From Paludibacteraceae bacterium (lineage in GTDB: Bacteria; Bacteroidota; Bacteroidia; Bacteroidales; Paludibacteraceae), in assembly GCA_045532735.1 (NCBI GenBank), contig JAZSGL010000091.1:29275-93274 (forward strand): a stretch of DNA of 64,000 bases. Reading direction: 5' to 3'. This document shows, in pieces, positions 17,987 through 53,706 of this stretch; within the stretch, counting starts at the first letter, position 1; each line of letters starts with the position of its first letter. The notes under the pieces were generated by a model that did no database searches, had not been told where the DNA came from, and saw only the letters and a program-made list of their open reading frames with translations. The position numbers and the translations under genes were made by a program.

Positions 17987-19270
17987 TTATGCTAGACGCA
18001 ACGAATTCTTCTGATAAAAACCATGTGCAATATGCTGAATATCATTAGATTGTGTGTATTTTGTCAACCAATTATTCATCGTTTTTACGCTCACTCCAAG
18101 GACCTTCGCTTGCTCAATGGCGTCTTGCTTCGTAAAGTCCGTGGGAAGCATTTGGAAGAATTGCTTTTGCAACATATTTCCCCCTATCTCACCCATTGGA
18201 GTGGGCTTCAATTCGGGCATCATCTGGAATACCATCGCCGCGTGCATCAGCAGTTTGTGACCAATGAGGAGTATCGTCTGAAAATCCTCCTCCGAGCAAA
18301 CGACTCGTTCGGGCAGCGGCTTGGTCATATCTAGTCGTAATCCTGTGAGGATCATACCTATACGCTTCATGATCACGGGCATACGCTTGAGCGAGGCGTC
18401 AAACAGTCCGCCTAGCTCCTGGCTATAGGTGTCATACTCGCTGCGGAACATACGTTTGATGGTCTTGAGTTGGGCATCCGTGAAGTAGAAGTAGCACGCA
18501 TGTCCTGCCTCCTCCATCCATAGATAGCGGTCGCCAAGTTCGGTGGCAAGACGGTCGTAGAGGATTGCTTCGCGAGGGGTATTACCCTCCGTATCTGTGT
18601 CCCACACCTGGTCATCGAAGTCCATACGACTATTGACTACATAGCAGCCAAAGCGGGACATCAGTCCATTCTCGCGGTTGCGCAAGAGGGGAGCTACTTG
18701 GTTAGGCGTACCCGATAGGAGCATGGCGATACGCGGGTAGCGAATCTCGATAAACTCGTTGTTCTGGCGGCGAAGTTGGCTGACCGTTTCGTGCTCGAAT
18801 ATACAGCGAACGATGTCGCCAAACTGACCGTAAGCGGCTCTGAGTGTTTGGGTTAGGGTGTCCATCTCCGTTGCGAAGACGATGCCGCGACCGTCGTACT
18901 CGTCCATCATCTTCATCAGGGCAGAGGCCGACGAGTTGGCGGGGATATACACCTGTTTGCCGTTCTTTCCCTCAATGGCCTGCAGCAACAGCCGACCGTA
19001 GTTCATGATGCCTTTGCCCGAGGCAGCAGGGGCAACAATCATGGTCAGCAGTTCGGGGCAGTAGGTGTGATGAGGGCGCCCGTGGAGCATGCGCATGGCA
19101 GGTACAGCGTAGCCGCAATTGGTTAATACAGAGAGCAATAGCATGTCGCGTGTCTCACCTACGGGAGCCACGGAGATAGCTCTTTCAATAAAAGATGGTA
19201 GTTGATTAGGTTGTAGGTTTGGGGTGATGAGAAGGTCATCCTTCTCTGGAATTAATGTACTTTTTTCCAT
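17987..19270 (-). CDS. DUF3987-like P-loop protein with C-terminal HTH (mobile-element replication/primase-helicase-associated family)
   Basis: Walker A VAPAASGKG, Walker-B-like GIVFATEMD and a C-terminal HTH-like segment (DAIEQAKVLGVSVKTMNNWLTKY). The family call is from memory of DUF3987 proteins in Bacteroides mobile elements. Confidence 0.7.
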   Translation of the reverse strand: MEKSTLIPEKDDLLITPNLQPNQLPSFIERAISVAPVGETRDMLLLSVLTNCGYAVPAMRMLHGRPHHTYCPELLTMIVAPAASGKGIMNYGRLLLQAIEGKNGKQVYIPANSSASALMKMMDEYDGRGIVFATEMDTLTQTLRAAYGQFGDIVRCIFEHETVSQLRRQNNEFIEIRYPRIAMLLSGTPNQVAPLLRNRENGLMSRFGCYVVNSRMDFDDQVWDTDTEGNTPREAILYDRLATELGDRYLWMEEAGHACYFYFTDAQLKTIKRMFRSEYDTYSQELGGLFDASLKRMPVIMKRIGMILTGLRLDMTKPLPERVVCSEEDFQTILLIGHKLLMHAAMVFQMMPELKPTPMGEIGGNMLQKQFFQMLPTDFTKQDAIEQAKVLGVSVKTMNNWLTKYTQSNDIQHIAHGFYQKNSLRLA

Positions 19271-19374
19271 TGTGTAATGGGGTTTAGGGTTATTTAATTA
19301 TATAAGGTGTACCTCTTAATAGATACACTGGAGGATCTACAATTTTTGGATTGCAACACAATCAAAATCGACTG

Positions 19375-19382
19375 CAAAATTA
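19375..19382 (-). promoter_or_regulatory. -7 box (TAatTTTG on the minus strand) for the DUF3987 gene
   Basis: The plus strand reads caaaatta. It lies about 105 nt upstream of the ATG at 19270. Confidence 0.4.
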
Positions 19383-19478
19383 CTGCTAAAATTTCTTTTC
19401 GCAATGCTTGCCACGCATTATAGGATATCCATTTTTATAAGTCGTAGATAACCAATAATTTGCCCAACCATTAGGTAT

Positions 19479-19594
19479 CTTATAAATCGGATATAAATGC
19501 TTATAAATCGGATATGAGATTTGGCGGTGTAGGGTAGTGTAGGATGGTTTAGAGTGGTGTAGTATGGTGTAGTATGGTGTAGAGTGGTTTTGAG
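19479..19594 (+). repeat. Iteron-like arrays: 2 x 21-bp (cttataaatcggatat...) then 7 x 10-bp (TGGTGTAGNN)
   Basis: The 21-bp units start at 19479 and 19500. The 10-bp units are cggtgtaggg, tagtgtagga, tggtttagag, tggtgtagta, tggtgtagta, tggtgtagag and tggttttgag (19525-19594). Confidence 0.85.
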
Positions 19595-19785
19595 TTTGCC
19601 CATCAATGCAAGTTTTTGCATTCTTTTGGGCAAAAACAAAAGTTAATCTATGAATTGACGATAATTGACAACCTAATTGACAATAATTGTCTTTAAAAAT
19701 TAATTCTCGATTTTTATTTATTTTTGTAGCTCGGAACGAGCGTATTTTTGTTTCTCTAAAATAATTTTCTACAATTTTGGTTAAT

Positions 19786-19894
19786 TTTTGGATCTCTTCC
19801 ATCCCTTATTCCCTTAAAAAATCGCATGTTTTTCAGAAAAACCAACAAAATTTATAAATAAATTTGTTTGTTCCGAAAAATTGTATTACCTTTG
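19786..19894 (+). promoter_or_regulatory. Promoter/operator module P, copy A (drives abiEi)
   Basis: 109 bp, about nine-tenths identical to 21945-22053. It contains the palindromes tttttcagaaaaa and aacaaaatttat..ataaatttgtt (19844-19868) and ends in the -7 box TAccTTTG (19887-19894). Confidence 0.8.
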
Positions 19895-19938
19895 CTGCAG
19901 ATTTCCCAAATATGTAACAAAAATGGGAAAAATTACCA

Positions 19939-20544
19939 ATGAAAAATAGCGTTGCAAATACTATTAAACAACTGATTATCAGCAGAGGACGTGCTAAGTT
20001 TTGGTTTGTTGATGATTTTGTTGCTATCGGAAGTAATGACTCTGCTCGTAAGGCACTTCAGCAACTGACCAACGAGCAGATGTTGCTCCGTATTTGCCAT
20101 GGTGTTTATTATTATCCAAAGATAGATCGCGAACTGGGATTAGGTGTCTTAATGCCTTCTAAAGAGAGTACGGCTCTTGCAATAGCCAAACATGCAGGGC
20201 TGAAAATTGTTCCTACAGGAGCATTTGCGCTGAATGCGTTGGGGATAACCACTCAAATGCAAACTGTTGTTGCTTTCTTGACTAATGGTCGCGCACGTCA
20301 AATTGATTTGGGAAACGAAAGATACATCAAGTTTTTTCATTCATCCTCGCAACGACTTTTTGAATACAAATCCTATCGCATGATACTCATCATCCAAGCT
20401 ATGACCGAATTGGGCGAAAATGGCTTGACCGAGGATGTTCGATCAAAGCTGAAAGAACAAGTGTCGTTGGTATCAGAAAGGGATTTTATCCATGACATCA
20501 AACTGGCTCCTATATGGGCGCAAACAATACTCAAAGAACTATGA
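19939..20544 (+). CDS. AbiEi-family (DUF6088-like) type IV antitoxin / transcriptional regulator
   Basis: 201 aa. The pattern CHGVYYYPK...PTGAFALNALGITTQ is typical of AbiEi-like antitoxins. Its stop overlaps the start of the AbiEii gene (ATGA at 20541-20544). Confidence 0.7.
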   Translation: MKNSVANTIKQLIISRGRAKFWFVDDFVAIGSNDSARKALQQLTNEQMLLRICHGVYYYPKIDRELGLGVLMPSKESTALAIAKHAGLKIVPTGAFALNALGITTQMQTVVAFLTNGRARQIDLGNERYIKFFHSSSQRLFEYKSYRMILIIQAMTELGENGLTEDVRSKLKEQVSLVSERDFIHDIKLAPIWAQTILKEL

Positions 20545-21551
20545 TTTACACCGATTTGCAAACAGAGAGGATGCTTGCCGTCCTTGATCAAGTTAGTGCC
20601 CAAACAAACTCTACTCAACAGACCATAGAGAAAGACTGGTGGGTGACTCAGGTACTACGGGTGCTATTTTCTCTTCCCTACGCCGCGCATTTATCGTTCA
20701 AAGGCGGAACATCGCTTAGCAAAGCGTGGAATATCATTGAGCGTTTCTCCGAGGATGTGGATATCGCCATTAGTCGGGAGTTTCTTGGCTTCGTTGGCGA
20801 ACTGAGTCGCACACAAGTGAGCGATAAGTTGCGCCGTGCGGCATGCTCGTTTGTACGCGATAAGATGCAGAATGACCTTAGAAAGGGTCTGGTAGCATTG
20901 GGTATTGCACCTGAAAAGTTTAATGTGTATGTGAATATCACTTCGGTAAGTACAACTGATCCTGAGGTTATATACATTGATTATGAATCTGTTCTTCCTA
21001 ATTCGGAATATATTGCACATACCGTCAAAGTAGAGGTAGGTGGTCGTAGTATGGCGGAGCCTGTGCAGAGTGTATCTATTCAATCGCAGATAGATGCGGT
21101 CCTTTCACAAGCTATGATAGTGCAGCCTGCGTTTGATGTTAATGTGGTGATTCCAGAACGAACGTTCTTAGAGAAGGTGATGTTGCTGCATGAGGAGTTC
21201 GCAAAACCTACGACTGAAGTACGCACGGAGCGTATGAGTCGACATCTATATGACTTGCACCGCATGTTGCATACAGATATTGCACAGCGTGCTTTAAGCG
21301 ACGAAGCACTCTATCGGGCAATAGTAGAACATCGCCGCAAGTTTATTAATCTGCGTGATTTTGACTACGATACACTTTATCCTAAGCACCTATCCTTGGA
21401 GATTCCTACCAATGTGATAGATCTGTGGCGCAAGGATTACGAAACGATGCAGCGTACCATGATCTATGGTCATTCTGTTGCTTTTGACGAATTGCTCGCA
21501 GAGATTCGCCAACTTAATAGATGTATCAGCCAACTGCCTTATCAGAAGTGA
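20541..21551 (+). CDS. AbiEii/AbiGii-family nucleotidyltransferase toxin (DUF1814)
   Basis: NTase motif FKGGTSLSKAWNIIERFSEDVDIAI. The ATG at 20541 was chosen over the track start because of the ATGA overlap with abiEi. Confidence 0.85.
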   Translation: MIYTDLQTERMLAVLDQVSAQTNSTQQTIEKDWWVTQVLRVLFSLPYAAHLSFKGGTSLSKAWNIIERFSEDVDIAISREFLGFVGELSRTQVSDKLRRAACSFVRDKMQNDLRKGLVALGIAPEKFNVYVNITSVSTTDPEVIYIDYESVLPNSEYIAHTVKVEVGGRSMAEPVQSVSIQSQIDAVLSQAMIVQPAFDVNVVIPERTFLEKVMLLHEEFAKPTTEVRTERMSRHLYDLHRMLHTDIAQRALSDEALYRAIVEHRRKFINLRDFDYDTLYPKHLSLEIPTNVIDLWRKDYETMQRTMIYGHSVAFDELLAEIRQLNRCISQLPYQK

Positions 21552-22288: not shown

Positions 22289-25200
22289 ATGAAAAAATTT
22301 ACTCTATTTTTAGTTGCGATGACGATGAGTTTGTTATCGTTTGCGCAAACTCAGATGAGCGGTACTTACACTGTGGGTACGGGTGGCTCTTATGATTATA
22401 GCTCTATGGCAGATGCTGGTATGGCAATCAAGGATGCTGAGTTTACAGGTGATGTAACTTTGCTTATCTGTACAGACTTAACCGAAACCATCAACACGGG
22501 TATCGTAAATAAGTCCAATTACACATTGACAATTCGTCCTGACAAGGATGAAAATCGTACCATTACCTATACTACAGCAACGGACAATACAGGTCCTACT
22601 GGTGTTTTTGTGATAGGTGGTGATATGACCAAGACTCCTGGTTCTACCATCGGTTGGGCTTCTGTTCCTACAAAGAATGTAATCGTCGATGGTGCTGCCG
22701 AAGGCAAAACTACACCTCGATTGAAAATTACAAACAATAAATGGGGCACTAATGTTTTGCTATATGGTGATGTACAAGATGTGATTATTAGGAATTGTAT
22801 TCTTGTTGGTAGAAGTGGTTCTAGCACAGCATATTCGTTGGCGTTTCGTTCTGAAAACTATTCGAAAACATCTAAAAATATTGGTCCTAAAAACTGCGTA
22901 GCAGAAAATTGCATTATAGAATCTGCATCAACACAGTCTCAAGTAGTATATTGTCAAGGAAACCAAGCCAATTCATACGCAGGTTATCCTACTAACATTA
23001 CCATTCGAAACTGTAGCATAACATCACATCTTCGTGGCATATTTTTGTATGGTGTAAACAACTTTGATATGGAAGGCTGTGTGCTTAAAATGTTAGAAAC
23101 TACGGCAGGATATATGTGTCACGGAATTTTAGGTACTACAGTTAGAGGAACTATTAATGTAAGAGGTAATAAGTTTATCAAAAACTCTACAAAAAATACT
23201 AGTGCAGGAGAATATGGATTGCAAACTATTACAGCTTCTGGTGGAGCAACTGAATGGGTGATTGAAAATAACTATTTTGCTGGTTATGATGCGTTAGCTT
23301 CTGGAACTACGTCAAAGGAGTCTCGTTTGGTAGGTATTCGTTGCGGTGATTATTGTGTAGTTCGTCATAATACATTCCATATGCCAAAACTAACCTACGC
23401 TCCTGGTACTTCACTCGTAGGTACACACGCTGTAGCATTATTATGGTTAGCAGGTTCTCATAAATATCCTGTTCAAAACAACATCTTCGTTTGCGAAGAG
23501 ACCGCAGCTAATGTTAGTTTGATTCGAGGAGGTTTGAATGAAAATGTAACTGGTAATGTATTCTACCACAATGGCGGAAAGGCAGCTATTGTAGCCGCTG
23601 CTCCTTCTTGTATGACCTTTGCAGATTTAGAAACATCATATCCTACTCAAGCAGCTACTTCAAAATGGAAGAATGTTACTTTTACAGATGCAGCAAATGG
23701 TGATTTGTCTTTAGCAGGACTCTCTGACGGAGATTTTGATTTAGCAGTTGATCGTCTTGCTGATGTGCTCACAGATATTGAAGGGAAAACTCGTGGTGAG
23801 AAAACACATGCAGGTGCATATGAAGGAACTTTCCGAGAGCCATTACCTTCTTCTATCTCTTTGAATGCTTATCCAGTGCAAGATTATAGTGCAAGTATCG
23901 TTGGTACAATGAAACGTGCTATTCAAAACGGTGAGAACACCATCGTGTTAACTCACGAAGCAGATGGTACCCCTCATATCTATAATATCGCACATGCTGC
24001 AAAGACCGTTACCGAAATTTCTCAAGAGGGCGTGGTGGCTGTAGACACAGAAAACTTGGGAGATTATTTATCTATATCAGACATCGCTTTGACTGAAGAT
24101 GGTAAATTAATAGCTTCCAACTATATGCGTTGCGAACAAGGAACAACACCTGCTACTGGATACAAGGTCGGTGAGATTCGTTACTACATTTGGAGTGATA
24201 TTAATGGTGCACCTACTCGTTGGTTTACAACCAATAGAACAGCAAACTCGACATATGCAGATGTTAGTTATACATTTGCCATAAAAGGTACATCTACGAA
24301 TGCGCAAGTAATGTCAACTGCTGTACACAATAGCAATCGTGCTGCTCGTATTAACTTGCACACAGTGGTAGGCGGTGTAGAAACTGCATATCATCGTTTT
24401 GGTCTCCATACCACAGCCTCTGAGTATACCGAAGCAAAACAAGGTTTGAACTTCCAACTTACAGCAACTCCTTTAGATAATGTATGGACACTGGAGGGTG
24501 AGTTGACAGATGCAACTTCATTTGCGGTTCCTGCTACACTTGGAGCAGAGTACAATGGAACTGCTCTTAATGGAACAAACCTCGGACAGAAATATAATGG
24601 CGTAAGTTATTTGCCAAACTATAATGATCATCACCTCATGGTGGCTCCTTATGCCGATGGATCGGGTAAATTAGCCGGTGTAAAAGTATTGGGTATTACA
24701 TATGGTTTTGATAACGCTATTGCTATAGCAACAAATACAAATTTATTAAATACTATTGACGCTACCGCCGCAGCCGCTACTGCGTATGTAGATGGTGATG
24801 GTGACTTGACTATTTATCTCATTGCGGATGCCAAAGTTTATGCGTTTAGTCAAAAAGCCCCTATCGCTGACTTCTGTACCGTTACGGCTACAGCTGGCGA
24901 GGGTGGCTCAGTAGAAGGTAGTGGTACATACGAAGCTAACACAATAGTTACTCTTACCGCAACCCCTGCAGAGCACTATACTTTCAAAAATTGGACTGTT
25001 GCAGGTTCTGAAGTTTCAACCACCGCAACATATTCGTTTGAAGTGACTACTGATGTAGAGGTGACTGCCAACTTTAAAGAAGATGATAAATTCACTATCA
25101 ATGCACATGCAGATCATACTAGCAAGGGTTATGTAACTGGTGGTGGAGAAAATATCTATGTTGGTACTGAACTACTGCTCAAGGCTACAGCGAAGAGCGG

Positions 25201-28200
25201 TTACTATTTTACTCAATGGAATGATGGTAATACCAACAACCCACGCACCATTACTGTAACCGATGATGCAGAGTATATAGCAGAGTTTGCAGAGGCATAT
25301 CCACGCGTATATGCATATGGTCTTAATGTGGTAAATAATGGAGATGATACTTATACATTCTCATTTAAGCCAAATACTGATGCAATAAGCGGTAATTTGC
25401 TTCTATATAGTGAGGATGGAACAACTGTGGCAAAAACAGTAGCGATTACAACGCCAATTATTGCCAACACAGTAAATTCTATTACTCTCTCTAAGACCGA
25501 CTTGCCTGATCAGTCTGACATTCCTTGGGCTATAGAATTAAGCGGCAATGCTATTCCTGCATTTGCAGAGACATTCGCTGATAGTGACCTTCGTTTCGCA
25601 AGAGCTCATGCAGTTATAGATAATAGTCCAGAGTCTGAATATTTTGGACGAGTATATGTAGCAGACCGCCGCAAAACCAAATCAGACAGTAAAGTATATG
25701 TTTATAATCCAGACTTTACAGATTTTACGAACACAAACTTAGGATTGGCTACTGCTGGTTATTCTCGTCCTGCAGTTGGAGCGGATGGTACATTGTATTT
25801 AACAGGTTATACAGATGGCGCTGAAGCAGGTATCTTCGTTGTGGATCCTGCCGATTTGACCAAATGTACACAATTCTTTAATGGTACATACGATTCTGAT
25901 GGTTTGTATAAAAATAATGGTAAAGAAATAGGTAGTTCTACATCAGGTGTTGGCGTATATGGCGCAGGTAAAGATGCTGTACTATACACCATGATGGAAG
26001 ATGGAAGCAATGCCAATTTCGATTCAGGCAAACAACCTATTGTCAAGTATCAAATTGGTCAAGAGAATGGTACTGTGCTTAAGCAGTGGAGCGACGAGCC
26101 AACATGGTGGGTAAATTATCCTGCTAAGGCAGCAGATAAGAGCTACAACTTTGGTAACAATGATTTTGCCGCTACAGCGAAAGGAGTGTGGGTAAGTCAA
26201 AACAAGTCTAATCCTGCTGATCGTCCTGAAATAGCCTTTGTGGATAAAACAGGTACTATTCGGTTCATGCAAAATAGCAAGCCAAGTTTAGGCGGTGGTA
26301 TGACTGTTAATGCTGACAATACCGCATTATATATTGTAGAAGATAGCAAAATTTTGGAATATGCTATTACATGGAACGAAAATACACCATCTCTGACCCT
26401 GTCAAATACATATCCTATAAGTCTTCAATATATTTCTACATTATCCGTAGATTATGCAGGAAATCTTATTGCTTGCGCAGGTACAACTTATGGCACTACA
26501 GACAACAATGTTATGAAAGTGGTTCGTTTTACTCTCCCTACAGACAACAATACTACTATTGTGCCAGCGGCTAAAGCAAAATCACTCAAGTTAGGCAATC
26601 GATATACCGTGACTGTAGATATAAACGATGAGTCTATGGGTGAAGTGATTGGAGCGGGTTTGTATAAGGAAGGTGAAATAGCGACACTTGCTGCAGCTCC
26701 AGTAGCCAACCACCGCATCGTGAATTGGAAGAACGGAGAAGAAGTTCTCTCAACAGATTTGACATGTTCGTTTGAGGTTACTGAGGATGTTACAATCAAT
26801 GTAACTTTTGAAAAGATTCCACAATATACAGTCACTACTGTAGCATCTCCTGATGGTAAAGGAACGATCATAGGTGGTGGTACATATAATGAAGGTACAG
26901 AGGTAGAGTTGAAAGCTACAGCTCATACAGGTTACACATTTGTGAGATGGGAAGATGATGACACTGCAGAGGCTACTCGTACTATTACAGTTACTGGCCC
27001 AGTTACCTACACTGCAATTTTTGACAAAGTATCTCCACGCGCATGGGCGTATGATTTAAGGAAAGGTGAAGATGGCGAAAACTATACGTTCACCTTCAAG
27101 ACTACTAGCGCAGGTACAGCTACCTTAATCTTTAAAGATAAAGATGGTAACACATTAGACTTTGGCGCACACACCGCAACTGCTACTACCGCTGAAGAAA
27201 AAACAATTACGATTGCAAAATCCACCTTTGAAGATGCTACCAAAGATATTTACTGGTCAGTACAGATGGATGGTGCTGCAATTGAGAATATGGTGGAAGT
27301 TACCGATCCTGCTGCTGGAATTTACAACTTCTATGTCCCTCAAGGTATTGCTGTGGACAATAATACCAATTCTAACTATTTCGGACAAATATATGTTGCA
27401 CAAGCAACAAATGGTGCTAGTGATGGCGGATCCGAAATGGCTAAAAATCAGACAGTTGGTTTGTTTGTATATGATCAAAAACTAACATTGAAAAATACGA
27501 ACTATGAGGGTATTGCTCCTCAAAATGTAGCGTTCAATACAGGAAATCCTATTGGTAGTATAGATGCTATTCGTCAACAAATGCACCGTATAGCTGTAGA
27601 TCCTATTACTAGTGAAGTAGCCTTTGCTTATTACAAATCTGATGCTACCCCTGCTACGGCTATATATGCAATGAATCCTACCGAATTGCCAGGCAACGCG
27701 ACCAATTTGATAAATGGTGCTAGTATAACTAAAGCAAACTCATTGTGCTATGATGAAAAAGGTGCGTTATATGTAATGGATAATGCTAATACTGGTACTG
27801 TAGGAGGACAAATCTATAAGTGTACAAAGGATGGAGTTGAGCTATTTGCTAAACATCAAGCAGAATGCCAATGGGCTGTTTATGACAATGCAATGGCTTC
27901 CGACGGTCGTGGTGGTCTATGGATTGCGCAAAATCGTTACGGATACGATTATCCTATTCTTTCTCACGTAAACAAAGATGGAGTGGTAGATTTCGCTGTT
28001 AAAGAAAATCTAAATAGTTGGTTCCCTAATAATAATACAGGTTCTTCATATCGTGGACAATTGGCTTACAACCTGAGTGAGAATATCTTGGCATTTGCTG
28101 GTAATAAGATGGTTACCCTGTTTACCGTAGAATATGACGGAGATGCTAAACCAACCATCAACAAATTAATGTCAACACCTTTGCTAGGTGGTGGTAATAT

Positions 28201-30343
28201 TGATGGTGTGGCATTTGACTATGCAGGTGACTTGTATGTGGCTTCTGCAAGTGCTGAGCGCTTGTATAAGTTTGTAGTGCCTACCAACAACAACACTTGC
28301 ACCGTACCTGCTCCTGAGTCACAAGTAATCCAAAAGGAGACACGATACAAAGTGGAGGTTGTGGCTAATCCAGTAGAAGGTGGTTCGGTATCAGGTGGCG
28401 GCGAAGCTGTCGCAGGAGCTCAAGTGGCAGTAAGTGCAACCGCCAATACGGGCTATCGCTTTGTAAACTGGACTGAGGGTAGTGATGAGGTATCTACCGA
28501 TGCAAGTTTCTCTTATACCGTCCCTGCTGCTGATGTGACGCTTATCGCTAACTTTGAGTTAATAACTTATACCCTGATAACATCTACCAACGATGAGAAT
28601 AAGGGTACAGTTAGCGTAGATGGTGTATGCACTCATGGATCCACTGTAACACTCACCGCTACTCCAGAAGAAGGCTACAAACTCCTCTACTGGAGCGATC
28701 GTTCTACAGAGAACCCACGCACCATTACGATGACCAAGAATGAGGCTATTTCTGCATACTTCGTGAAGGAATATGACATGGAGCCTACCTTTAAAATTGA
28801 GAAAGTTTGGGAGAACACCCAAGTGCCTGGAAGTGCTGATGGTTACCAAGCAGTAGGTTGGGATGGTAAGATCTATATGCAAAACAAAACAGCAGGAAAG
28901 ATTAAGATATATAGCAATGGTACAGATGCTGCTGTAGATTATGCTACGTCTAATACTTCTGGTCAGCAAATCGCAGTGGATGAAGCTGGTAATTTGATTG
29001 TATTCAACGCGACATTCTACACAATAACACCTAATGCTATCATAATTTATCCAAAAGGTAGTACAACGGGCACAGCTATTTCCTTTACATTGCCTTATCC
29101 AGAGCGTTGCGACTTTATCTCTGCTTCTGGTGATATTTACAGCGCAGAAGGTGGATATGTGTATTTCTATTGCCAAAATAAGAATGCCGTTAATCGTGTG
29201 AAAATTACCAATGGAGCACTCGCTTCGGTAGATGCTATAGGTAACACAGAAAAACCAGCAACTAGTGTTAGTCATGTTATGGTGGATATTTTTGGCAACT
29301 TGGCTGCTCATTGTCGCTCAACTGCAGTTTACGCCATCAACTCTTATACAGGTGAAACGACTGCATTTACCACTACCCTTTCTGGTGTCAAACTGAGCAC
29401 ACTCGGTGGCTGCACATTTGAATTAGGTGGCAAAGAATTGTGGGCATATAATGTAGGTACTACAAACTATAATAGTGAGTGGAATTTGTACAACATGACC
29501 GATAAGGTATTTATGTCAAACGAAACACTCTATGCTAAAGATAAAGATAGCAGGAAAACTACAGGACCTGCTAACTGGCTCAATGTACAAGTAGTAGATG
29601 AGAATACTGCTTACATTTATCAATTCTGCCCAGAAGTAGCAGTAGCTGTTTGGAAAGTAAGTATTGAAACTGAAGTAAATGTCACTATCGACGAAGACGC
29701 TGATAATACTACTGCACTCGCTCCATACGAGGGTGAGACAGTTACAGCTACAGTCACTCGCAACTTCGGTGCGAATAAGATCTTGACTGTCACATTGCCA
29801 TTCGATATGAGCGCATCACAAATCAGCAATCACTTCGGTAATGCTACTGTATACGAGTTCTACAATGTGGTAGATGCAGGCGAAGAACTTCACTTGCAAT
29901 TCGCTCATACTAATTCTATCGAAGCAGGTAAGCCATATATTCTCCAAACTACAACTAGTGGGTATGATGCCGAGGATGGATTTACCATCGAAGATGTGAC
30001 CATCAATACTGAGCCTACTCATGTTAAGAGAGGAGATATCACGATGGTACCTGTATTAGATGGTGGTGGCACATTAAATCAACCAACCCAATACTATCTT
30101 TCTGACAATGCATTGTATTGTGCTGGTGACTACGAGCGACCATTGCCAGGTTTGCGTGCTTTCTTTACTTCGGCATCGTCAACTCCAATCCGCGCACGCG
30201 TGATATTCGATGACAACGGGGCAACATCTATCCCAACGGTGATCGCTCCTGAGACGAAAGCGCAAAAGATAATCCAGGATGGACGACTCTTTATCATCCG
30301 CGGTGAACACCAATACAACGCACAAGGTCAAATGATTGAATAA
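22289..30343 (+). CDS. Giant (2684 aa) secreted protein: beta-helix head, three pairs of InlB-B-repeat-like domains, Ig/propeller supermodules, C-terminal sorting-like tail
   Basis: The signal peptide is MKKFTLFLVAMTMSLLSFAQT. PbH1-like turns (NCILVGRS, NCIIESAS, IRNCSITSH, VRGNKFIKNS, IENNYFAG, VRHNTFHM, VQNNIFVCE) end in DIEGKTRGEKTHAGAYEG. The repeat pairs lie at 24875-25288, 26600-27028 and 28343-28768. The tail is KIIQDGRLFIIRGEHQYNAQGQMIE. Confidence 0.9.
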   Translation: MKKFTLFLVAMTMSLLSFAQTQMSGTYTVGTGGSYDYSSMADAGMAIKDAEFTGDVTLLICTDLTETINTGIVNKSNYTLTIRPDKDENRTITYTTATDNTGPTGVFVIGGDMTKTPGSTIGWASVPTKNVIVDGAAEGKTTPRLKITNNKWGTNVLLYGDVQDVIIRNCILVGRSGSSTAYSLAFRSENYSKTSKNIGPKNCVAENCIIESASTQSQVVYCQGNQANSYAGYPTNITIRNCSITSHLRGIFLYGVNNFDMEGCVLKMLETTAGYMCHGILGTTVRGTINVRGNKFIKNSTKNTSAGEYGLQTITASGGATEWVIENNYFAGYDALASGTTSKESRLVGIRCGDYCVVRHNTFHMPKLTYAPGTSLVGTHAVALLWLAGSHKYPVQNNIFVCEETAANVSLIRGGLNENVTGNVFYHNGGKAAIVAAAPSCMTFADLETSYPTQAATSKWKNVTFTDAANGDLSLAGLSDGDFDLAVDRLADVLTDIEGKTRGEKTHAGAYEGTFREPLPSSISLNAYPVQDYSASIVGTMKRAIQNGENTIVLTHEADGTPHIYNIAHAAKTVTEISQEGVVAVDTENLGDYLSISDIALTEDGKLIASNYMRCEQGTTPATGYKVGEIRYYIWSDINGAPTRWFTTNRTANSTYADVSYTFAIKGTSTNAQVMSTAVHNSNRAARINLHTVVGGVETAYHRFGLHTTASEYTEAKQGLNFQLTATPLDNVWTLEGELTDATSFAVPATLGAEYNGTALNGTNLGQKYNGVSYLPNYNDHHLMVAPYADGSGKLAGVKVLGITYGFDNAIAIATNTNLLNTIDATAAAATAYVDGDGDLTIYLIADAKVYAFSQKAPIADFCTVTATAGEGGSVEGSGTYEANTIVTLTATPAEHYTFKNWTVAGSEVSTTATYSFEVTTDVEVTANFKEDDKFTINAHADHTSKGYVTGGGENIYVGTELLLKATAKSGYYFTQWNDGNTNNPRTITVTDDAEYIAEFAEAYPRVYAYGLNVVNNGDDTYTFSFKPNTDAISGNLLLYSEDGTTVAKTVAITTPIIANTVNSITLSKTDLPDQSDIPWAIELSGNAIPAFAETFADSDLRFARAHAVIDNSPESEYFGRVYVADRRKTKSDSKVYVYNPDFTDFTNTNLGLATAGYSRPAVGADGTLYLTGYTDGAEAGIFVVDPADLTKCTQFFNGTYDSDGLYKNNGKEIGSSTSGVGVYGAGKDAVLYTMMEDGSNANFDSGKQPIVKYQIGQENGTVLKQWSDEPTWWVNYPAKAADKSYNFGNNDFAATAKGVWVSQNKSNPADRPEIAFVDKTGTIRFMQNSKPSLGGGMTVNADNTALYIVEDSKILEYAITWNENTPSLTLSNTYPISLQYISTLSVDYAGNLIACAGTTYGTTDNNVMKVVRFTLPTDNNTTIVPAAKAKSLKLGNRYTVTVDINDESMGEVIGAGLYKEGEIATLAAAPVANHRIVNWKNGEEVLSTDLTCSFEVTEDVTINVTFEKIPQYTVTTVASPDGKGTIIGGGTYNEGTEVELKATAHTGYTFVRWEDDDTAEATRTITVTGPVTYTAIFDKVSPRAWAYDLRKGEDGENYTFTFKTTSAGTATLIFKDKDGNTLDFGAHTATATTAEEKTITIAKSTFEDATKDIYWSVQMDGAAIENMVEVTDPAAGIYNFYVPQGIAVDNNTNSNYFGQIYVAQATNGASDGGSEMAKNQTVGLFVYDQKLTLKNTNYEGIAPQNVAFNTGNPIGSIDAIRQQMHRIAVDPITSEVAFAYYKSDATPATAIYAMNPTELPGNATNLINGASITKANSLCYDEKGALYVMDNANTGTVGGQIYKCTKDGVELFAKHQAECQWAVYDNAMASDGRGGLWIAQNRYGYDYPILSHVNKDGVVDFAVKENLNSWFPNNNTGSSYRGQLAYNLSENILAFAGNKMVTLFTVEYDGDAKPTINKLMSTPLLGGGNIDGVAFDYAGDLYVASASAERLYKFVVPTNNNTCTVPAPESQVIQKETRYKVEVVANPVEGGSVSGGGEAVAGAQVAVSATANTGYRFVNWTEGSDEVSTDASFSYTVPAADVTLIANFELITYTLITSTNDENKGTVSVDGVCTHGSTVTLTATPEEGYKLLYWSDRSTENPRTITMTKNEAISAYFVKEYDMEPTFKIEKVWENTQVPGSADGYQAVGWDGKIYMQNKTAGKIKIYSNGTDAAVDYATSNTSGQQIAVDEAGNLIVFNATFYTITPNAIIIYPKGSTTGTAISFTLPYPERCDFISASGDIYSAEGGYVYFYCQNKNAVNRVKITNGALASVDAIGNTEKPATSVSHVMVDIFGNLAAHCRSTAVYAINSYTGETTAFTTTLSGVKLSTLGGCTFELGGKELWAYNVGTTNYNSEWNLYNMTDKVFMSNETLYAKDKDSRKTTGPANWLNVQVVDENTAYIYQFCPEVAVAVWKVSIETEVNVTIDEDADNTTALAPYEGETVTATVTRNFGANKILTVTLPFDMSASQISNHFGNATVYEFYNVVDAGEELHLQFAHTNSIEAGKPYILQTTTSGYDAEDGFTIEDVTINTEPTHVKRGDITMVPVLDGGGTLNQPTQYYLSDNALYCAGDYERPLPGLRAFFTSASSTPIRARVIFDDNGATSIPTVIAPETKAQKIIQDGRLFIIRGEHQYNAQGQMIE

Positions 30344-35846: not shown

Positions 35847-37295
35847 TTATGCCGCTTTCTTGCTAGGTTTGAGCAGGCATATCATACCAAGAGCAGTCAA
35901 GGCCGCGTTGAGGATCAGGCGCTCGTGTGAGAACTGATAGCCATTGAACCACACTACGGAATTCACATCAATGATCCATGTGATCACAGGCGCTGCAATC
36001 ACAGCGATTGGAATCCAGCGGTCGCGTACTTGACGCTTGGTGAAGATACCAAAGCAGAACATACCGAGCAATGGGCCGTAGGTGTAGCTAGCTACCTTAT
36101 ACACCGTTTGAATCACCGAATCATCATTGAGTAGGTGAATCACATAGATACATGCCGCCATCAGAATAGCCATACCAACATGCACCCAAGTGCGGATCTT
36201 AGTGAGGTTGTCGGCCTTCTCCTTGTTGAGAATATCCACAGTGAATGAGGTGGTCAAGGCAGTCAATGCGCCACCTGCTGCAGAGTAGGCTGCGGCGATA
36301 AAACCAATGATAAACAATACACCTACAATCACAGGGAAGTAGTTACCTGTCGCTAAGAATGGGAAGACATCGTCACCCTTGAGGTTGGCTACCTCCGTCA
36401 CACCCGTTTGTGCGGCATAGGTATAGAGCAGATAACCCAAGAAGAGGAAGAGACCAATCACTACGATTTGCATCAGTGCACCTACGATGAGGTTCTTCTG
36501 ACTCTCGCGTGGGTTCTTGCACGATAGGGTACGCTGCATGAGGTCTTGGTCAAGACCTGTAGTGGCAATCACGAGGAAAACACCCGCTAGGAATTGCTTC
36601 CAGAAATAGGTACCCTCCTTAGGGTTGTCAAAGAAGAAGGTGCGAGTCATATCACTAGCTCCCCAACCTTCGATATTCACGCCTGCACGCAGCACAAAGT
36701 AGATACAGAGTGCTACAGACAGGATCAGACAGCAGGTCTTCAGCAGATCGGTCCAGATGAGCGACTTCACACCACCCTTGAAGGTGCAGAGATATACGAT
36801 GAGCACAGTGATGATAGCATTCACCCAGAATGGTACTGGCACGGCCAATTTGTCGAATACTAGCAACTGTAGCACTTCGCTCACTACGAACAAGCGCACA
36901 CTAGCGCCGAGCATCTTGCTCACGAAAAAGAGCCATGCTCCTGACTTATAGGTGCTCATACCAAAACGCTGTTGCAGGTATTGGTAGATAGAGGTGAGAT
37001 TGAGCTTATAGTACAGCGGAATCAGCACATAAGCGATAAGGAACTGACCTACTGTGAAGCCTAGCACCATCTGCATGTATGCCCAGCCCGAAGTGGCTAC
37101 CATACCTGGTACACTGACAAAGGTAACACCAGAGATAGCAGCGCCGATTGTGGACATAGCTACCAGCAGCCAGTTGCTGCTACGGTTGCCTGAGAAGAAA
37201 CCGGCATTGTCGGCCTTACGCCCCGCCAAGTAGGAAATGAAAAACAGCAATGCAAAATAGCATGCGATGACTAATAAGATTGTTAATGGATTCAT
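35847..37295 (-). CDS. Sodium:solute symporter family transporter
   Basis: 482 aa, polytopic and hydrophobic throughout. The N-terminal pattern is SSF-like (AGRKADNAGFFSGNRSSNW). Confidence 0.8.
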   Translation of the reverse strand: MNPLTILLVIACYFALLFFISYLAGRKADNAGFFSGNRSSNWLLVAMSTIGAAISGVTFVSVPGMVATSGWAYMQMVLGFTVGQFLIAYVLIPLYYKLNLTSIYQYLQQRFGMSTYKSGAWLFFVSKMLGASVRLFVVSEVLQLLVFDKLAVPVPFWVNAIITVLIVYLCTFKGGVKSLIWTDLLKTCCLILSVALCIYFVLRAGVNIEGWGASDMTRTFFFDNPKEGTYFWKQFLAGVFLVIATTGLDQDLMQRTLSCKNPRESQKNLIVGALMQIVVIGLFLFLGYLLYTYAAQTGVTEVANLKGDDVFPFLATGNYFPVIVGVLFIIGFIAAAYSAAGGALTALTTSFTVDILNKEKADNLTKIRTWVHVGMAILMAACIYVIHLLNDDSVIQTVYKVASYTYGPLLGMFCFGIFTKRQVRDRWIPIAVIAAPVITWIIDVNSVVWFNGYQFSHERLILNAALTALGMICLLKPSKKAA

Positions 37296-37355: not shown

Positions 37356-38540
37356 TTATTCTTCGTAGAGGAGATATGGACGGCGTTGGTCTTTGAACTT
37401 CGCCACATCCTCTTGCCAGCGAGCTGCGATCTCTTCTTCGCTCTTGCCCTGATTGATCATCTTGCGAACATAATCCACACCTACTAAATACTCAAAGAAA
37501 GGACGGAAGAAATAGTTGTCCATATTCAGATGCTTGTATGCATCTAGTAGATAGCGCAGTGAGAAGCCCACCTTGCGTGCTTCCTCTTCGCTCATACCGC
37601 TTAGGTCCACGCCGTCGCAGATGCGGCCTTTCTGGGTGGATTGGTTAGGCGTGAAGGTGATAGCAGGTCCATATACGCTGGCCTCGGTACGAGGTGCATT
37701 GAAGTTAGGGTGACCATAGCAGAGGAATGGTTTGTCGGTGCCACGGCCCAATGATACAGGCGTTGCCTCAAACAGACATACCGCTGGATAGAGGTAGATA
37801 GATAGCATATTGCGCAGGTTTGGCGATGGCGCTACAGGCAGACGATAGAGGGTCTGATGGGTGTAGTGCTTACATGGGATGACCGTGAGATCCACTTGGA
37901 GGGAATCATAGAGCCAATACTCGCCGTTGATCATCAACGCTAGCTCGCCCAAGGTCATACCATGTACTACGGGTATTGGCAATGCGCCTACACCTGATTT
38001 GTGCTTCATATCTAGTATAGGACCATCCACATACCACCCATTAGGGTTAGGACGGTCGAAGACGATGAACTGCTTGCCATCATGTGCGCAAGCGTCCATC
38101 AGGCGGAACATCGTGATATAGTAAGTGTAGAAGCGGAGTCCTACATCTTGGATGTCAGTGATAAGGATGTCAAAAGTGGCCATGGCCTCCTTAGAGGGGC
38201 GATAGCTCTTTCCATCGTAGAGCGAGAGAATAGGTATGCCCGTCTTCTCATCCACGCTGCTAGCCACATGCTCGCCTTCACGAGCAGTGCCGCGGAAACC
38301 ATGCTCTGGGGAGAAGATGGCGGTAACCTCTACGCCATGCTTGAGCAAGAGGTCTAGGGTATGAATAGTGTCTTTGCCTTGGATCACGATACCCGTATGG
38401 TTGCTCAGTAGCGCTACGCGCTTACCCTTGAGCAGGGGGAGGTATTGTTTGGTTTGCTCTGCGCCTAATACTACACGCTCGGCATAAATGGTAGTCAAGG
38501 CTGCGCAAAGAAAAGCAAGAATAGTGATAATCTTCTTCAT
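37356..38540 (-). CDS. DUF1343 / NamZ-type exo-beta-N-acetylmuramidase (GH171-like)
   Basis: The hallmarks are LLSNHTGIV, FSPEHGFRG and DIQDVGLRFYTYY. The signal peptide MKKIITILAFLCAALTTIYA starts at the ATG at 38540. Confidence 0.85.
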   Translation of the reverse strand: MKKIITILAFLCAALTTIYAERVVLGAEQTKQYLPLLKGKRVALLSNHTGIVIQGKDTIHTLDLLLKHGVEVTAIFSPEHGFRGTAREGEHVASSVDEKTGIPILSLYDGKSYRPSKEAMATFDILITDIQDVGLRFYTYYITMFRLMDACAHDGKQFIVFDRPNPNGWYVDGPILDMKHKSGVGALPIPVVHGMTLGELALMINGEYWLYDSLQVDLTVIPCKHYTHQTLYRLPVAPSPNLRNMLSIYLYPAVCLFEATPVSLGRGTDKPFLCYGHPNFNAPRTEASVYGPAITFTPNQSTQKGRICDGVDLSGMSEEEARKVGFSLRYLLDAYKHLNMDNYFFRPFFEYLVGVDYVRKMINQGKSEEEIAARWQEDVAKFKDQRRPYLLYEE

Positions 38541-38570
38541 AGATTGTATTTTATATTGTATATAGCGGTA

Positions 38571-38578
38571 CAAAGGTA
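38571..38578 (-). promoter_or_regulatory. -7 box (TAccTTTG on the minus strand) internal to PUL2
   Basis: The plus strand reads caaaggta. It lies 31 nt upstream of the ATG at 38540. Confidence 0.5.
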
Positions 38579-39566: not shown

Positions 39567-41303
39567 TTACTTAGCTTTAGGGAACTCAATAAGTGCGAAA
39601 CCACCCTTGGTAGCAGCGGTGAAGACTACGAGTTTGCCATCCACCTCAGCTGCGTTACATTGAGCAGCGCAAGCACCAACGGTCTTGTTAGCATCTGGCT
39701 CAGTAGGATCGAGTGAGTAGTGGTAGGTAGGCTCCCAGAAGATCTCCTCATCGTACAACATTTCAGACCACTTGATAAGCGCAGCCTTGGTGTCCACACC
39801 ATCGGTGATATCTTGCAAGAACAAACCAGGACCTGCACCAATACGCTTACCGTTGTTGTAAGGAGTAGAGAATACGAGGTAGCGACCACGGTTGAACATG
39901 ATCACATGAGGATCTACACCACTGCGTGGGTTCAAACCGCTCTCGGTAGCATCCAACTCGATATCCTCCATGAGGGATACACCATTAGCATCCATGAGGC
40001 GGATAACAGCCATATAGTGGCTCTTGAATACATATTGACCTGCCTCTGGAGTCTCGTTGATATAGCCATAGTATGGGAATGGAACATCGAGAATGATCTC
40101 AGTAGGATTAGAGAACTGATTGAAGTTGGTGATTTGTACACGGTAAACCTTCTCAGCAGAACCCTCTTGGCCGCAGAAGAATGCATAACCATTACCAGAT
40201 TGATCAATATTAACAGAAATATTATCTCCCAAACGAGCAGGAGCACCAATAGTGTCACCCTCCTCGGTTACGCCAAGTACGCCATCCCATGACCAAACCT
40301 CAGGAGCGGCATTAGCATCCGCATAGTGATAAACCTTGAGAGGAGCATCAGCATTAAGTGTAGTAGTGAGGTTACAGATATAGATGTGACCGTGGTTCAA
40401 GCTACCAGAGCTTACTACGTGTGTACCACCTTCGATACCAGTAGTGTTGAGAGCAATCTTGTTGCCTGCGTTGTCAGCCAAAAGGTCAGATACCTTGTAC
40501 AGGTGTGGGAACGCAGAACCATCGTCGTTGCGAGATACTACGAGTACGTGCTCGCCGTCGAAGTCAGTACCACGAGTATTCTCAGCTGCAAACTCAGCTG
40601 GAGCATTGCCCGTAGCTACAGAGAAATCGTGAACTACTGCTGCAGCGATATCTGCACCTGGGGTAGGAGCAGCCGCAAAAGTGATATCGAATACAGTCTT
40701 ACGACCCATGAATTCGATCTCCAATTGACCTGGGTTAGCAGCAGAGAGTTTGTCGTCTTGCATAGCGGTGAACTTATAAGAAGCGCGTGCAGGGATTACA
40801 GAGATCTTGCTAAACACAGCCTCTGCCTCCTCTGGCATACCGAGCGCTACAGCACCATCAAAAATCAATGCTTTAACCTCCTCACCAGTGGTGCCTTTTT
40901 TCATGTACAAAGCATCCAACATAGGATCAGATGTTGGGTCAAGAAGATTGATGATAACGGTGTACTCTTGCTCTTTGGTTCCATTGATGACCTTAATGGT
41001 TTGTACCAATTGTTTGCCGTCCTCAGAAGCACCTAATGTGAAATCATAGGTGTCTTTCTCTAATTTAGCACCCAAAGAAAGTTTTGCGGTAAATTGAATA
41101 GCTTCGATATTAGTCTCAGCTGCTACATCATTAAATGTAACTGTGTAGGTGGTATTGTCCACTTCACCAGCATATGTGGTGTTCTTGATGGAGATGGTCT
41201 TGATCAAAGCCTCTACTGTGTCTTCTGGTGTTGGCTTTGGTTTACAACCTACGAATAGTACGCTCAACATGGCGATACTAAGGAAAAAAAGATTCTTTTT
41301 CAT
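39567..41303 (-). CDS. PUL-encoded surface lipoprotein (Ig-like N-terminal domains, beta-rich C-terminus)
   Basis: Lipobox LFVGCKPKP. It occupies the SGBP position after SusD. No catalytic motif was recognised. Confidence 0.6.
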   Translation of the reverse strand: MKKNLFFLSIAMLSVLFVGCKPKPTPEDTVEALIKTISIKNTTYAGEVDNTTYTVTFNDVAAETNIEAIQFTAKLSLGAKLEKDTYDFTLGASEDGKQLVQTIKVINGTKEQEYTVIINLLDPTSDPMLDALYMKKGTTGEEVKALIFDGAVALGMPEEAEAVFSKISVIPARASYKFTAMQDDKLSAANPGQLEIEFMGRKTVFDITFAAAPTPGADIAAAVVHDFSVATGNAPAEFAAENTRGTDFDGEHVLVVSRNDDGSAFPHLYKVSDLLADNAGNKIALNTTGIEGGTHVVSSGSLNHGHIYICNLTTTLNADAPLKVYHYADANAAPEVWSWDGVLGVTEEGDTIGAPARLGDNISVNIDQSGNGYAFFCGQEGSAEKVYRVQITNFNQFSNPTEIILDVPFPYYGYINETPEAGQYVFKSHYMAVIRLMDANGVSLMEDIELDATESGLNPRSGVDPHVIMFNRGRYLVFSTPYNNGKRIGAGPGLFLQDITDGVDTKAALIKWSEMLYDEEIFWEPTYHYSLDPTEPDANKTVGACAAQCNAAEVDGKLVVFTAATKGGFALIEFPKAK

Positions 41304-43118: not shown

Positions 43119-43156
43119 ATTCATACTATTACAAAGTTTCAACATTTCTGAGTTCA

Positions 43157-46100: not shown

Positions 46101-46402
46101 ACAACCTCTTCCAATACACGAGTATCTTCGCGTAATACAACATTGATAGTAGAACGATTGTTGATACTCTCAGTGGCAGTAGCATAACCAATGTATGAGA
46201 ACTGCAATTGTGCATCGTTAGGAATATCAATGCTGTAGAAACCATCAAAGTCGGTGATTGTACCATTAGATGTGCCAGTCTGCACTACACTTACACCAAT
46301 CAATGGTTCGCCTTGAGCATCCGTTACTTGACCTGTAACGATAGCTGCATTGGCTACCAATACAGTAGCCAATGCGATGAATAGAAATGCTAATCGTTTC
46401 AT
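43157..46402 (-). CDS. susC: SusC/RagA-family TonB-dependent transporter
   Basis: VTGQVTDAQGEPLIGVSVVQ and VVVVGYDTQRKANLTGAVGSISV. No STN domain. The start codon overlaps the stop of the upstream giant gene (ATGA at 46399-46402). Confidence 0.95.
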   Translation of the reverse strand: MKRLAFLFIALATVLVANAAIVTGQVTDAQGEPLIGVSVVQTGTSNGTITDFDGFYSIDIPNDAQLQFSYIGYATATESINNRSTINVVLREDTRVLEEVVVVGYDTQRKANLTGAVGSISVEDQLEGRPIANIGTGMQGAVAGLTVTNSSGRLGDTPKFRIRGAVGTLLNEGGSQPLILVDGVEISDISMINADDIKEISVLKDAASSSIYGTRAAFGVILITTKSGSGTDAKFNVTYSNNFSWATPTALPEIAKSYIGAEMALDARNRRSPGTTIFQNACGLVWDADDIDMMREWDQMFGNVDLGPEMVEGRDFVLKSGIPHFYRSWNAANEYVKDFSFSQQHNMSFSGTAGKTNYYMGLSYMGQGGVVKVNPDSYNRFSVNYSTDTEIKPWLKVRSKALYTRTNLETPFNFGTSSYDALYYLYRWPSIMPYGTYEGHPFRNSVTETAAASMDTDVKDYMRFSVGATFVLGTPDLTLDIDYTYNLDNQHITQRGGTVGGWDFWSGGGMALVDNWAASGRNKVDKYQYNRNYHAGNAVLRYKHTWNDAHSFSAFAGMNIEYKEVDYFNAEIRDLLDQNKPEISLSIGDKFIYGSHTSWAIMGFFARANYSYKNRYLIELNGRFDGSSRFPTDQQWGFFPSGSLGWVASEENFWEALNPYWSFLKLRASYGSIGNQDIGDNRFRAIMASSNSGWIVGETNKLTFGLPTALAEGFTWETIKTINGGIDTRFFNDDLGVSFDIYRRINDGMVVGGSEVPSTFGATAPYENAAQLTTNGWELGIDYHHRFANGLRLNISANLADAITIVTKHPRKTSSVIDGSNYEGKIYGEIWGFTTDRLFQESDFNADGTLVDGIASQEYFEKSNGYDYKYGPGDVKYKDLDGNGEITWGDKTVDKHGDWSRIGNATPRYEYNFKIGAEWYGVDLNIFFQGVGSRQYWATGTMMIPGWNFSEGTYYAHQTDYWTPENTDAYYPRLTETNQPGQYSAAGFNFLCQTRYLLDMSYLRLKNITIGYSLPSKVLKKMHFNKFRVYFSAENVCEIDHLGDLPIDPETATSAGDGGAMGFGRIYPFTRQLSCGLQISL

Positions 46403-53638: not shown

Positions 53639-53646
53639 TACCTTTG
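53639..53646 (+). promoter_or_regulatory. -7 box TAccTTTG for the GH20 gene
   Basis: Exact match about 60 nt upstream of the ATG at 53707. Confidence 0.5.
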
Positions 53647-53706
53647 TCGAGAAAATTGTTCTTTCGTAGAGCAGTATATTTTATAAGAACTTTTCAATTT
53701 AATGTT

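Follow-up and report, generated by a model that had tools for sequence, protein, structure and literature searches.

Two giant secreted proteins share one module

The stretch analysed here, called the window below, is 64,000 nucleotides of a Paludibacteraceae bacterium genome (GenBank assembly GCA_045532735.1, contig JAZSGL010000091.1, positions 29,275 to 93,274) and encodes two giant secreted proteins, G1 and G2, which together carry four copies of one long module. Both proteins were found as single open reading frames (ORFs) at the coordinates given by the initial annotation, to which we can add that G2 lies on the reverse strand, and a signal peptide was read from the sequence at the N-terminus of each. 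The two genes and the four module copies are as follows.

22289-30343, forward strand: G1, secreted giant protein of 2684 residues, single ORF
46399-51525, reverse strand: G2, secreted protein of 1708 residues, single ORF
25295-26596, forward strand: G1 module copy 1 (residues 1003-1436), Ig-like part at about residues 1001-1100, propeller from about residue 1101
27029-28339, forward strand: G1 module copy 2 (residues 1581-2017), Ig-like part at about residues 1581-1678, propeller from about residue 1679
47893-49218, reverse strand: G2 module copy a (residues 770-1211), Ig-like part at about residues 772-856, then a six-bladed propeller; the copy used for the AlphaFold2 (AF2) model
46543-47832, reverse strand: G2 module copy b (residues 1232-1661), with a sub-threshold FlgD_ig match at residues 1247-1313

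The four copies are collinear over roughly 370-470 columns at 24-27% identity (two of the six pairs align as split segments), and BLASTP comparisons between them, in a two-protein database, gave E-values of 1e-13 to 1e-32. Using an independent profile, made from 30 distant standalone homologues and free of any window sequence, we recovered all four, in G2 at residues 765-1204 (independent E-value, i-E, 4e-84) and 1237-1648 (i-E 3e-51) and in G1 at residues 1005-1397 (i-E 2e-31) and 1579-2034 (i-E 2.5e-41); over 100 shuffles of G1 and G2 the top score of the same profile was 4.3 bits. Besides G1 and G2, no ORF of the window contains the module. The initial annotation had listed ordered motifs in four collinear copies and proposed that these be aligned pairwise and by profile: the motifs translate as quoted, both kinds of alignment agree on collinear and significant copies (profile i-E 4e-84 to 2e-31), and the profile envelopes match its module boundaries to within a few residues.

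At an identity level of 45%, each of the four copies belongs to a subfamily of its own, which has separate orthologues in other proteins. Recent tandem duplication was rejected as their origin, given this separation and the 24-27% identity, and by sequence comparison the copies are ancient paralogues and not recent repeats. G2 copy b is most closely related to the last modules of genes that neighbour amidase-module genes in related loci, and G2 may for this reason have originated by gene fusion, as the similarity suggests.

Fold of the module

As modelled, the module joins an Ig-like domain, probably of the FlgD type, to a six-bladed propeller of the NHL type that is divergent and rich in insertions, the first 85-100 residues or so forming the beta-sandwich and the next 340 or so the propeller. 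This identity follows from the AF2 model, the Foldseek comparisons, the profile matches to sequences of the PDB and the relatives that score above Pfam thresholds. The model of G2 copy a, based on a 45-sequence alignment, has a predicted local distance difference test score (pLDDT) of 94.7 and a predicted template modelling score (pTM) of 0.94; a beta-sandwich of about six strands takes up its residues 1-85, and the 23 strands that come next are assigned to six blades. Most of the shared motifs map to four of the six blades (blade 1, YFGrvYV; blade 3, GKDxVLYT; blade 4, LIHVNxxGxVDF; blade 6, DxAGNLY), and the others to the Ig start and to the strand that closes the propeller (LPxxNNT).

When this model was compared with the PDB by Foldseek, the top match was 3hrp, from Bacteroides thetaiotaomicron, followed by the NHL domains of Thin, TRIM71, TRIM2/3 and Brat, the filamin-NHL chain of Lin41 and teneurin chains. 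The template modelling (TM) score by target was 0.64-0.69 for chains with NHL domains, at 12-15% sequence identity, and about 0.5 for seven-bladed WD40 proteins. The family profile, run against PDB sequences, matched Pizza7H (2.6e-21), Pizza6 (about 1e-20), PknD (3.5e-8) and the NHL domains of TRIM2/3 (4e-6 to 2e-5), with the matches to solved NHL propellers falling mainly on blades 6 and 1, and also the FlgD Ig structures 7eh9 and 7bhq (E 5e-4 to 8e-4). A profile of the four window copies by itself matched Pizza6 at 8.5e-10.

No Pfam or NCBIfam model is above threshold over the module in any window copy, and there are weak hints of FlgD_ig at its start and of SGL, WD40 and NHL in the part that follows. 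The best score of Pfam NHL (PF01436) is 13.5 bits, in G1 copy 2, against a cut-off of 20, and the other copies have no match to it; FlgD_ig (PF13860) reaches 25.2 bits at G2 residues 1247-1313 against a cut-off of 27, and 14-15 bits in isolated copies. Relatives exceed both cut-offs, P0013, P0031 and P0036 for NHL (26.1, 23.3 and 32.4 bits) and P0031 for FlgD_ig as well (27.1 bits). The Ig-like start described by the initial annotation is borne out by the beta-sandwich of the model and by the FlgD profile matches. Its remark that the module is not a named domain family holds for models at threshold in Pfam and NCBIfam, but not for the folds, since the AlphaFold and Foldseek runs that it recommended resolve the module into the sandwich and the six-bladed NHL-type propeller. 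It had considered that resolution into a known NHL or YncE domain of known function would speak against its claim; what we found goes half of this way, the folds being known but the propeller being divergent and without known function.

Two other identities were tried and rejected. A seven-bladed propeller of the YncE or WD40 kind does not agree with the six blades of the model, and no YncE protein is among the top 50 Foldseek matches. A lactonase of the SGL/SMP-30/YvrE type (PF08450) scores 17.1 bits in G2 copy a against a threshold of 26.3, and the alignments contain no conserved cluster of acidic residues or of histidines. Profile-profile comparison (hhalign) of the module with DUF4623 (encoded close to G2, see below), the mid domain shared by both giants, the G1 head and the N-terminal domain of G2 gave probabilities of at most 3%, and because of this value DUF4623 is not regarded as a hidden copy of the module.

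Size of the family and domain partners

Using HMMER and the family profile, we scanned 1.84 billion representative proteins and obtained 1,282 clusters (50% identity) at E<=1e-30 and 5,603 at E<=1e-10. The domain architecture of the 143 best representatives was then mapped with local hidden Markov models (HMMs). One module is present in 51 of these proteins, two in 67, three in 22 and four in 3, and the accompanying domains are few.

Amidase_3 with CarboxypepD_reg: 35 of 143
mid domain: 32 of 143
C-terminal domain of the G1 type: 36 of 143
propeller-like domain of the G1 type: 13 of 143, sometimes twice
beta-helix head: 8 of 143
fusion of amidase, mid domain, GHL10 and module: 2 of 143

The last two proteins, P0159 and P0166 (2212-2496 residues), are amidase-CarboxypepD_reg-mid-GHL10-module fusions, joining enzymes that are encoded by separate neighbouring genes in the window. 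Standalone forms also exist, made of a signal peptide and a module followed by the C-terminal domain (CTD) of the type IX secretion system (T9SS) in Bacteroidota or by PEP-CTERM in other phyla. The initial annotation had recommended a catalogue of the heads that accompany the module in Bacteroidales, and the partners in these representatives include amidase, beta-helix, GHL10 and mid domains. Judged from these domain maps, the module is a cassette shuffled among a few partner domains and not one fixed scaffold.

At NCBI, the standalone homologue of Bacteroides nordii (UAK42470.1) is named "hypothetical protein" and the 1220-residue amidase orthologue of the same species N-acetylmuramoyl-L-alanine amidase, and the relatives P0024, P0050 and P0065 bear, from other sources, the label 'sugar lactone lactonase YvrE'. 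Both folds have been described before; neither the family nor its use as a cassette on secreted cell-wall-degrading proteins has a name. Across the family, the only polar residues conserved at 90% or more are Q310, R312, D402 and N406, and R312 is replaced by Lys in G1 copy 1.

Heads, mid domain and repeats of the two giants

According to the local HMM domain map, G1 consists of a signal peptide, the beta-helix head, the mid domain, two successive units of two B-repeats plus a module, two further B-repeats with the propeller-like domain, and the recurrent C-terminal domain. G2, mapped with Pfam and local HMMs, consists of a signal peptide, an N-terminal domain of 170 residues, Amidase_3, CarboxypepD_reg, the mid domain, two modules and a short C-terminal tag. 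The parts other than the modules are listed here in the order of each protein.

22289-23830, forward strand: G1 head (residues 1-514), signal peptide and right-handed parallel beta-helix (AF2, Foldseek)
23849-24859, forward strand: G1 mid domain (residues 521-857), homologous to the G2 mid domain
24872-25297, forward strand: pair of InlB-type B-repeats (Flg_new_2) before G1 module 1
26600-27031, forward strand: pair of InlB-type B-repeats before G1 module 2
28343-28774, forward strand: pair of InlB-type B-repeats before the G1 propeller-like domain
28769-29548, forward strand: G1 propeller-like domain (residues about 2161-2420)
29546-30340, forward strand: G1 recurrent C-terminal domain (residues 2420-2684), ending in KIIQDGRLFIIRGEHQYNAQGQMIE
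50332-51015, reverse strand: G2 Amidase_3 catalytic domain (residues 171-398; PF01520)
49981-50325, reverse strand: G2 CarboxypepD_reg-like beta-sandwich (residues 401-515; PF13620, 35.9 bits against a cut-off of 32.3)
49216-49980, reverse strand: G2 mid domain (residues 516-770)
46402-46542, reverse strand: G2 short C-terminal tag, placed by alignment to the CTDs of orthologues

Both heads named by the initial annotation, a peptidoglycan amidase in G2 and a right-handed beta-helix in G1, were recovered. The first is an Amidase_3 match of 45 bits (PF01520, cut-off 27) at residues 173-381. The second is supported by the AF2 model of the G1 head, a right-handed parallel beta-helix with a pLDDT of 90.7, and by Foldseek matches at E 2.5e-4 to 1e-3 to beta-helix proteins including GH87 alpha-1,3-glucanase, chondroitinase B, the adhesin PfbA, fucoidan lyase and phage tailspike depolymerases. 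An invariant Asn recurs in this head every 30-36 residues or so, and no sequence relatives of it were found in Pfam or the PDB, with the head searched alone or as a profile. With these structural neighbours, the modelled head could be either catalytic or adhesive.

The mid domain had escaped the initial annotation, whose list of parts common to G1 and G2 was incomplete in this respect. A profile of the long class of mid domains (midL), taken from amidase proteins outside the window, matches G2 at residues 514-768 (E 1.6e-35) and G1 at residues 539-849 (E 3.2e-21); it is the only profile to link both giants, those dominated by close G2 orthologues failing to detect the G1 domain. In both proteins the mid domain lies upstream of the first module, directly in G2 and after two B-repeats in G1. 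Mid domains come in a long class (about 350 residues) and a short one (about 255 residues), with weak WD40-like hints, and a profile of them found no relatives in Pfam or among PDB sequences.

The only Pfam matches in G1 are to Flg_new_2, six times (PF18998, 228 bits over six stretches), and they account for the 580-residue period of the protein, in which a pair of B-repeats precedes each module and the propeller-like domain; Pfam finds no InlB-type B-repeats in G2. The propeller-like domain is remotely related to the propeller of the module (independent profile, i-E 5e-6 over G1 residues 2098-2365), and the C-terminal domain of about 265 residues has no Pfam match. No exact match of G1 on other contigs is on record. 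The idea of the initial annotation that the same scaffold carries two different heads is an oversimplification, since the copies in the two giants come from four subfamilies, the B-repeats occur in G1 and not in G2, and the partners are shuffled throughout the family.

Upstream of G1 are a DUF3987 gene (17987-19270, reverse strand) and a DUF6088/AbiEii type IV toxin-antitoxin pair (19939-21551, forward strand), and the stretch from 17987 to 21551 may be a mobile or defence islet beside G1.

The G2 locus and its conserved context

The genes around G2 follow one another between 55917 and 35847 in this order.

53644-55917, forward strand: GH20 beta-N-acetylhexosaminidase (PF00728, 7.8e-80), divergently transcribed
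51542-53467, reverse strand: GHL10 (PF02638, 2e-61), directly upstream of G2
46399-51525, reverse strand: G2
43157-46402, reverse strand: SusC, its start overlapping the G2 stop by 4 nt (46399-46402)
41349-43181, reverse strand: SusD
39567-41303, reverse strand: DUF4623
between DUF4623 and NamZ, reverse strand: ORF of 294 residues, no Pfam match
37356-38573, reverse strand: NamZ exo-muramidase
35847-37295, reverse strand: SSF transporter

With SusC and SusD adjacent to each other and degradative enzymes alongside, the G2 locus is a polysaccharide utilization locus (PUL) as defined in Bacteroidota. Its gene order is kept in related genomes. The 4-nt overlap of G2 with SusC suggests that the amidase and the transporter are co-transcribed and translationally coupled.

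We collected 79 related genome loci in a survey seeded with motifs of the G2 copy a type, in which counts are biased towards amidase loci. Amidase_3 occurs in the module ORF or an adjoining one in 76 of these loci, GHL10 in 54, SusC in 49, SusD and DUF4623 in 44 each, GH20 in 24 and NamZ in 22; the locus L002 is 97% identical over the module. Modules of other subfamilies, P0026 (L084) and P0073 (L088), both stand in SusC-SusD-DUF4623-amidase-module-GHL10 arrangements. The usual G2 orthologue is about 1225 residues long and combines a single module with a canonical T9SS CTD; forms with two modules are found in the clade of the window and in Prevotellaceae, a form with three in L049, and many loci have next door a separate gene with one to three modules. 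In about ten loci of the Paludibacter type, the gene that directly follows the amidase-module gene on its downstream side encodes a homologue of the G1 head, and L045 has a fusion of a G1-type head with a module and a T9SS CTD; because of this adjacency and this fusion, the parts of G1 can be tied to the same system. A search of the available literature library returned no paper specific to a peptidoglycan PUL, to DUF4623, to the module or to NHL-type surface glycan-binding proteins, and the G2 locus, with a set of enzymes that points to peptidoglycan, is apparently an uncharacterised peptidoglycan-harvesting locus.

Some records of the survey have peculiarities of their own. In L001 (2099-5891), a relative 64-72% identical, the G2 gene is called as two ORFs with a 20-nt overlap, a 622-residue amidase and a 647-residue mid domain plus module, which could reflect a real gene fission or an assembly frameshift. 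The contigs of L018 and L021 carry a Bacteroidales-type PUL (68-70% identity) though their records are titled Mycobacteriaceae and Acidaminococcaceae, and are probably mis-binned contigs of metagenome-assembled genomes; L020 is titled Muribaculaceae, a Bacteroidales family.

Export and C-terminal tags

Among the G2 orthologues (L025, L040, L044 and L078) three interchangeable C-terminal tags are found. One is the canonical T9SS CTD (PF18962), matched by the orthologues L044 and L078 and by many standalone modules. Another, present in G2, is a short form of about 45 residues, '...GIYTITGQYLG....LPQGMYIINGNKVIK', also written '...GMYIINGNKVIK', and alignment matches it to the final strands of the T9SS CTDs of the orthologues. 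The remaining one, 'K.I..GQL.IIR.G..YNA.G..', is that of G1 (about 30260-30340, forward strand) and ends 49 of the 143 family representatives. Going by this alignment and exchange of tags, the last two may be unrecognised sorting signals, and G1 and G2 are probably exported by the T9SS.

Proposed function of the cassette

We favour, with modest confidence, the explanation that the module is a non-catalytic targeting or binding cassette for the secreted cell-wall-degrading proteins of a peptidoglycan-harvesting locus. G1 and G2 would be exported by means of their signal peptides and of C-terminal tags equivalent to the T9SS CTD of orthologues, and would probably be kept at the cell surface. There the propellers would act as non-catalytic binding units that hold the heads on an insoluble wall substrate, such as murein sacculi or denuded glycan strands, in the neighbourhood of SusCD; with several copies that have diverged, binding would be multivalent or of mixed specificity, and the Ig domain and the B-repeats would be spacers. 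The G2 amidase would remove stem peptides from the glycan strands and GHL10 would cleave these strands, SusCD would take in the resulting oligosaccharides, NamZ and GH20 would trim the imported products and the SSF transporter would take up sugars, while G1 would deliver a polysaccharide-active or adhesive beta-helix head to the same kind of target. Glycan strands freed of peptides by an amidase are the substrate of NamZ enzymes (bioRxiv 10.1101/2021.12.02.470905), and Cwp19, of the GHL10 family, is a peptidoglycan lytic transglycosylase (PMC6016235). A non-catalytic role is supported by the scarcity of conserved polar residues and by the fact that the closest structural matches are ligand-binding NHL domains.

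Several observations weigh against this explanation. The putative ligand of the module is deduced from neighbouring genes only, and the counts of these neighbours carry the bias of the survey towards amidase loci. G1 itself is outside the PUL, about 5 kb from its nearest gene and about 16 kb from G2, with pgk and others in between. One of five standalone homologues from outside Bacteroidota lies near Amidase_3 and GHL10 (L082), and the other four have no Amidase_3 or GHL10 neighbours. Finally, the T9SS CTD model (PF18962) matches neither G1 nor G2, even when their C-termini are scanned alone.

Some of these points would fit a cassette that serves as a cell-cell or host adhesin unrelated to peptidoglycan, G1-type giants being surface adhesins and the link to amidase loci being incidental. 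The build of G1, with its PfbA-like beta-helix head, Listeria-type B-repeats and great length, its position outside the PUL and the mostly non-cell-wall gene contexts outside Bacteroidota are all in keeping with this possibility, which we nevertheless consider improbable, as several module subfamilies and genera show the same association with Amidase_3, GHL10 and SusCD and the G1-type head repeatedly adjoins the amidase gene. The cassette might instead be a passive spacer or stalk that lifts catalytic heads off the outer membrane or through the capsule, without binding any ligand itself: in G1 it is interspersed with InlB B-repeats, which are classic spacers, its copy number varies from one to four among related proteins, and FlgD-type Ig domains are common linkers. 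Propellers of about 340 residues would, however, be a costly and unusual means of spacing, there are standalone secreted modules that have no partner to hold at a distance, and the conservation of four distinct subfamilies, each separately, suggests a functional constraint on each, so that a mere stalk appears rather unlikely, if somewhat easier to credit than an adhesin.

The least probable alternative, to which we give little credence, is that the propeller is itself an enzyme, such as a lactonase of the SGL/YvrE kind or a lyase with cell-wall sugars as its substrate, and that the giants are multi-enzyme proteins. Many six-bladed propellers are hydrolases or lyases, and the YvrE label of relatives and the weak SGL score of G2 copy a point in this direction; this score is, however, far under the threshold, hardly any polar residue is invariant in the family or across the four window copies, no acidic or histidine cluster is conserved and the nearest structures are ligand-binding NHL domains and not enzymes.

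The targeting explanation can be extended to the proposal that the module is the founding member of a family of propellers that bind peptidoglycan or glycan strands in the manner of a carbohydrate-binding module, that it marks a T9SS-dependent system of peptidoglycan harvesting in Bacteroidales of the gut and the environment (amidase-module, GHL10, SusCD, DUF4623, NamZ and GH20) and that its diverged copies recognise different chemotypes in the walls of prey or dead bacteria; this is a tentative proposal, which we regard as possible but doubtful. If the modules do target murein, a large family of more than 1,200 clusters at 50% identity, unannotated even in cultured Bacteroides nordii, would be defined, together with a marker for the locus by which gut Bacteroidales may feed on the walls of other bacteria, and this would have a bearing on the turnover of bacterial necromass in the gut, the release of immunologically active muropeptides and inter-bacterial antagonism. 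A profile of the cassette would also let annotation pipelines split many "giant hypothetical" proteins of Bacteroidales into a few domains.

Comparison with known systems

The propeller of the module resembles the NHL propellers (PF01436), among them the PknD sensor (1rwi), Pizza, TRIM71/Lin41, TRIM2/3, Brat, Thin and teneurin, in having six four-stranded blades with the A.D..G.hYh signature, and in Lin41 a filamin domain of Ig type directly precedes the NHL propeller, which is the same domain order as in the module. It differs from them in its size (about 340 residues against about 270), in long insertions in blades 1-4, in a sequence identity of 12-15% and in its context, that of secreted bacterial cell-wall-degrading proteins. 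The structural genomics entry 3hrp (NP_812590.1), also from Bacteroidales, is the best Foldseek match over the whole module (E 5.8e-10, 477 aligned columns), but profile searches of PDB sequences did not return it, its TM score is only 0.42-0.45 and, its own function being unknown, no function can be transferred from it. The FlgD Ig-like domain (PF13860) probably corresponds to the N-terminal beta-sandwich of about 85-100 residues, and FlgD structures are among the profile matches; the window copies, by contrast, are sub-threshold, have no flagellar connection and are fused to a propeller.

In its proposed role of a repeated targeting unit, the module is comparable to the binding modules and surface glycan-binding proteins of PULs, with which the G2 locus shares the SusC/SusD architecture, and to the repeats of Gram-positive autolysins (SH3b, LysM, CWB). 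It differs from all of these in fold, and binding is here a proposal; moreover, those systems use lipoprotein anchoring or attachment to the Gram-positive wall, whereas the proteins that carry the module are probably exported by the T9SS.

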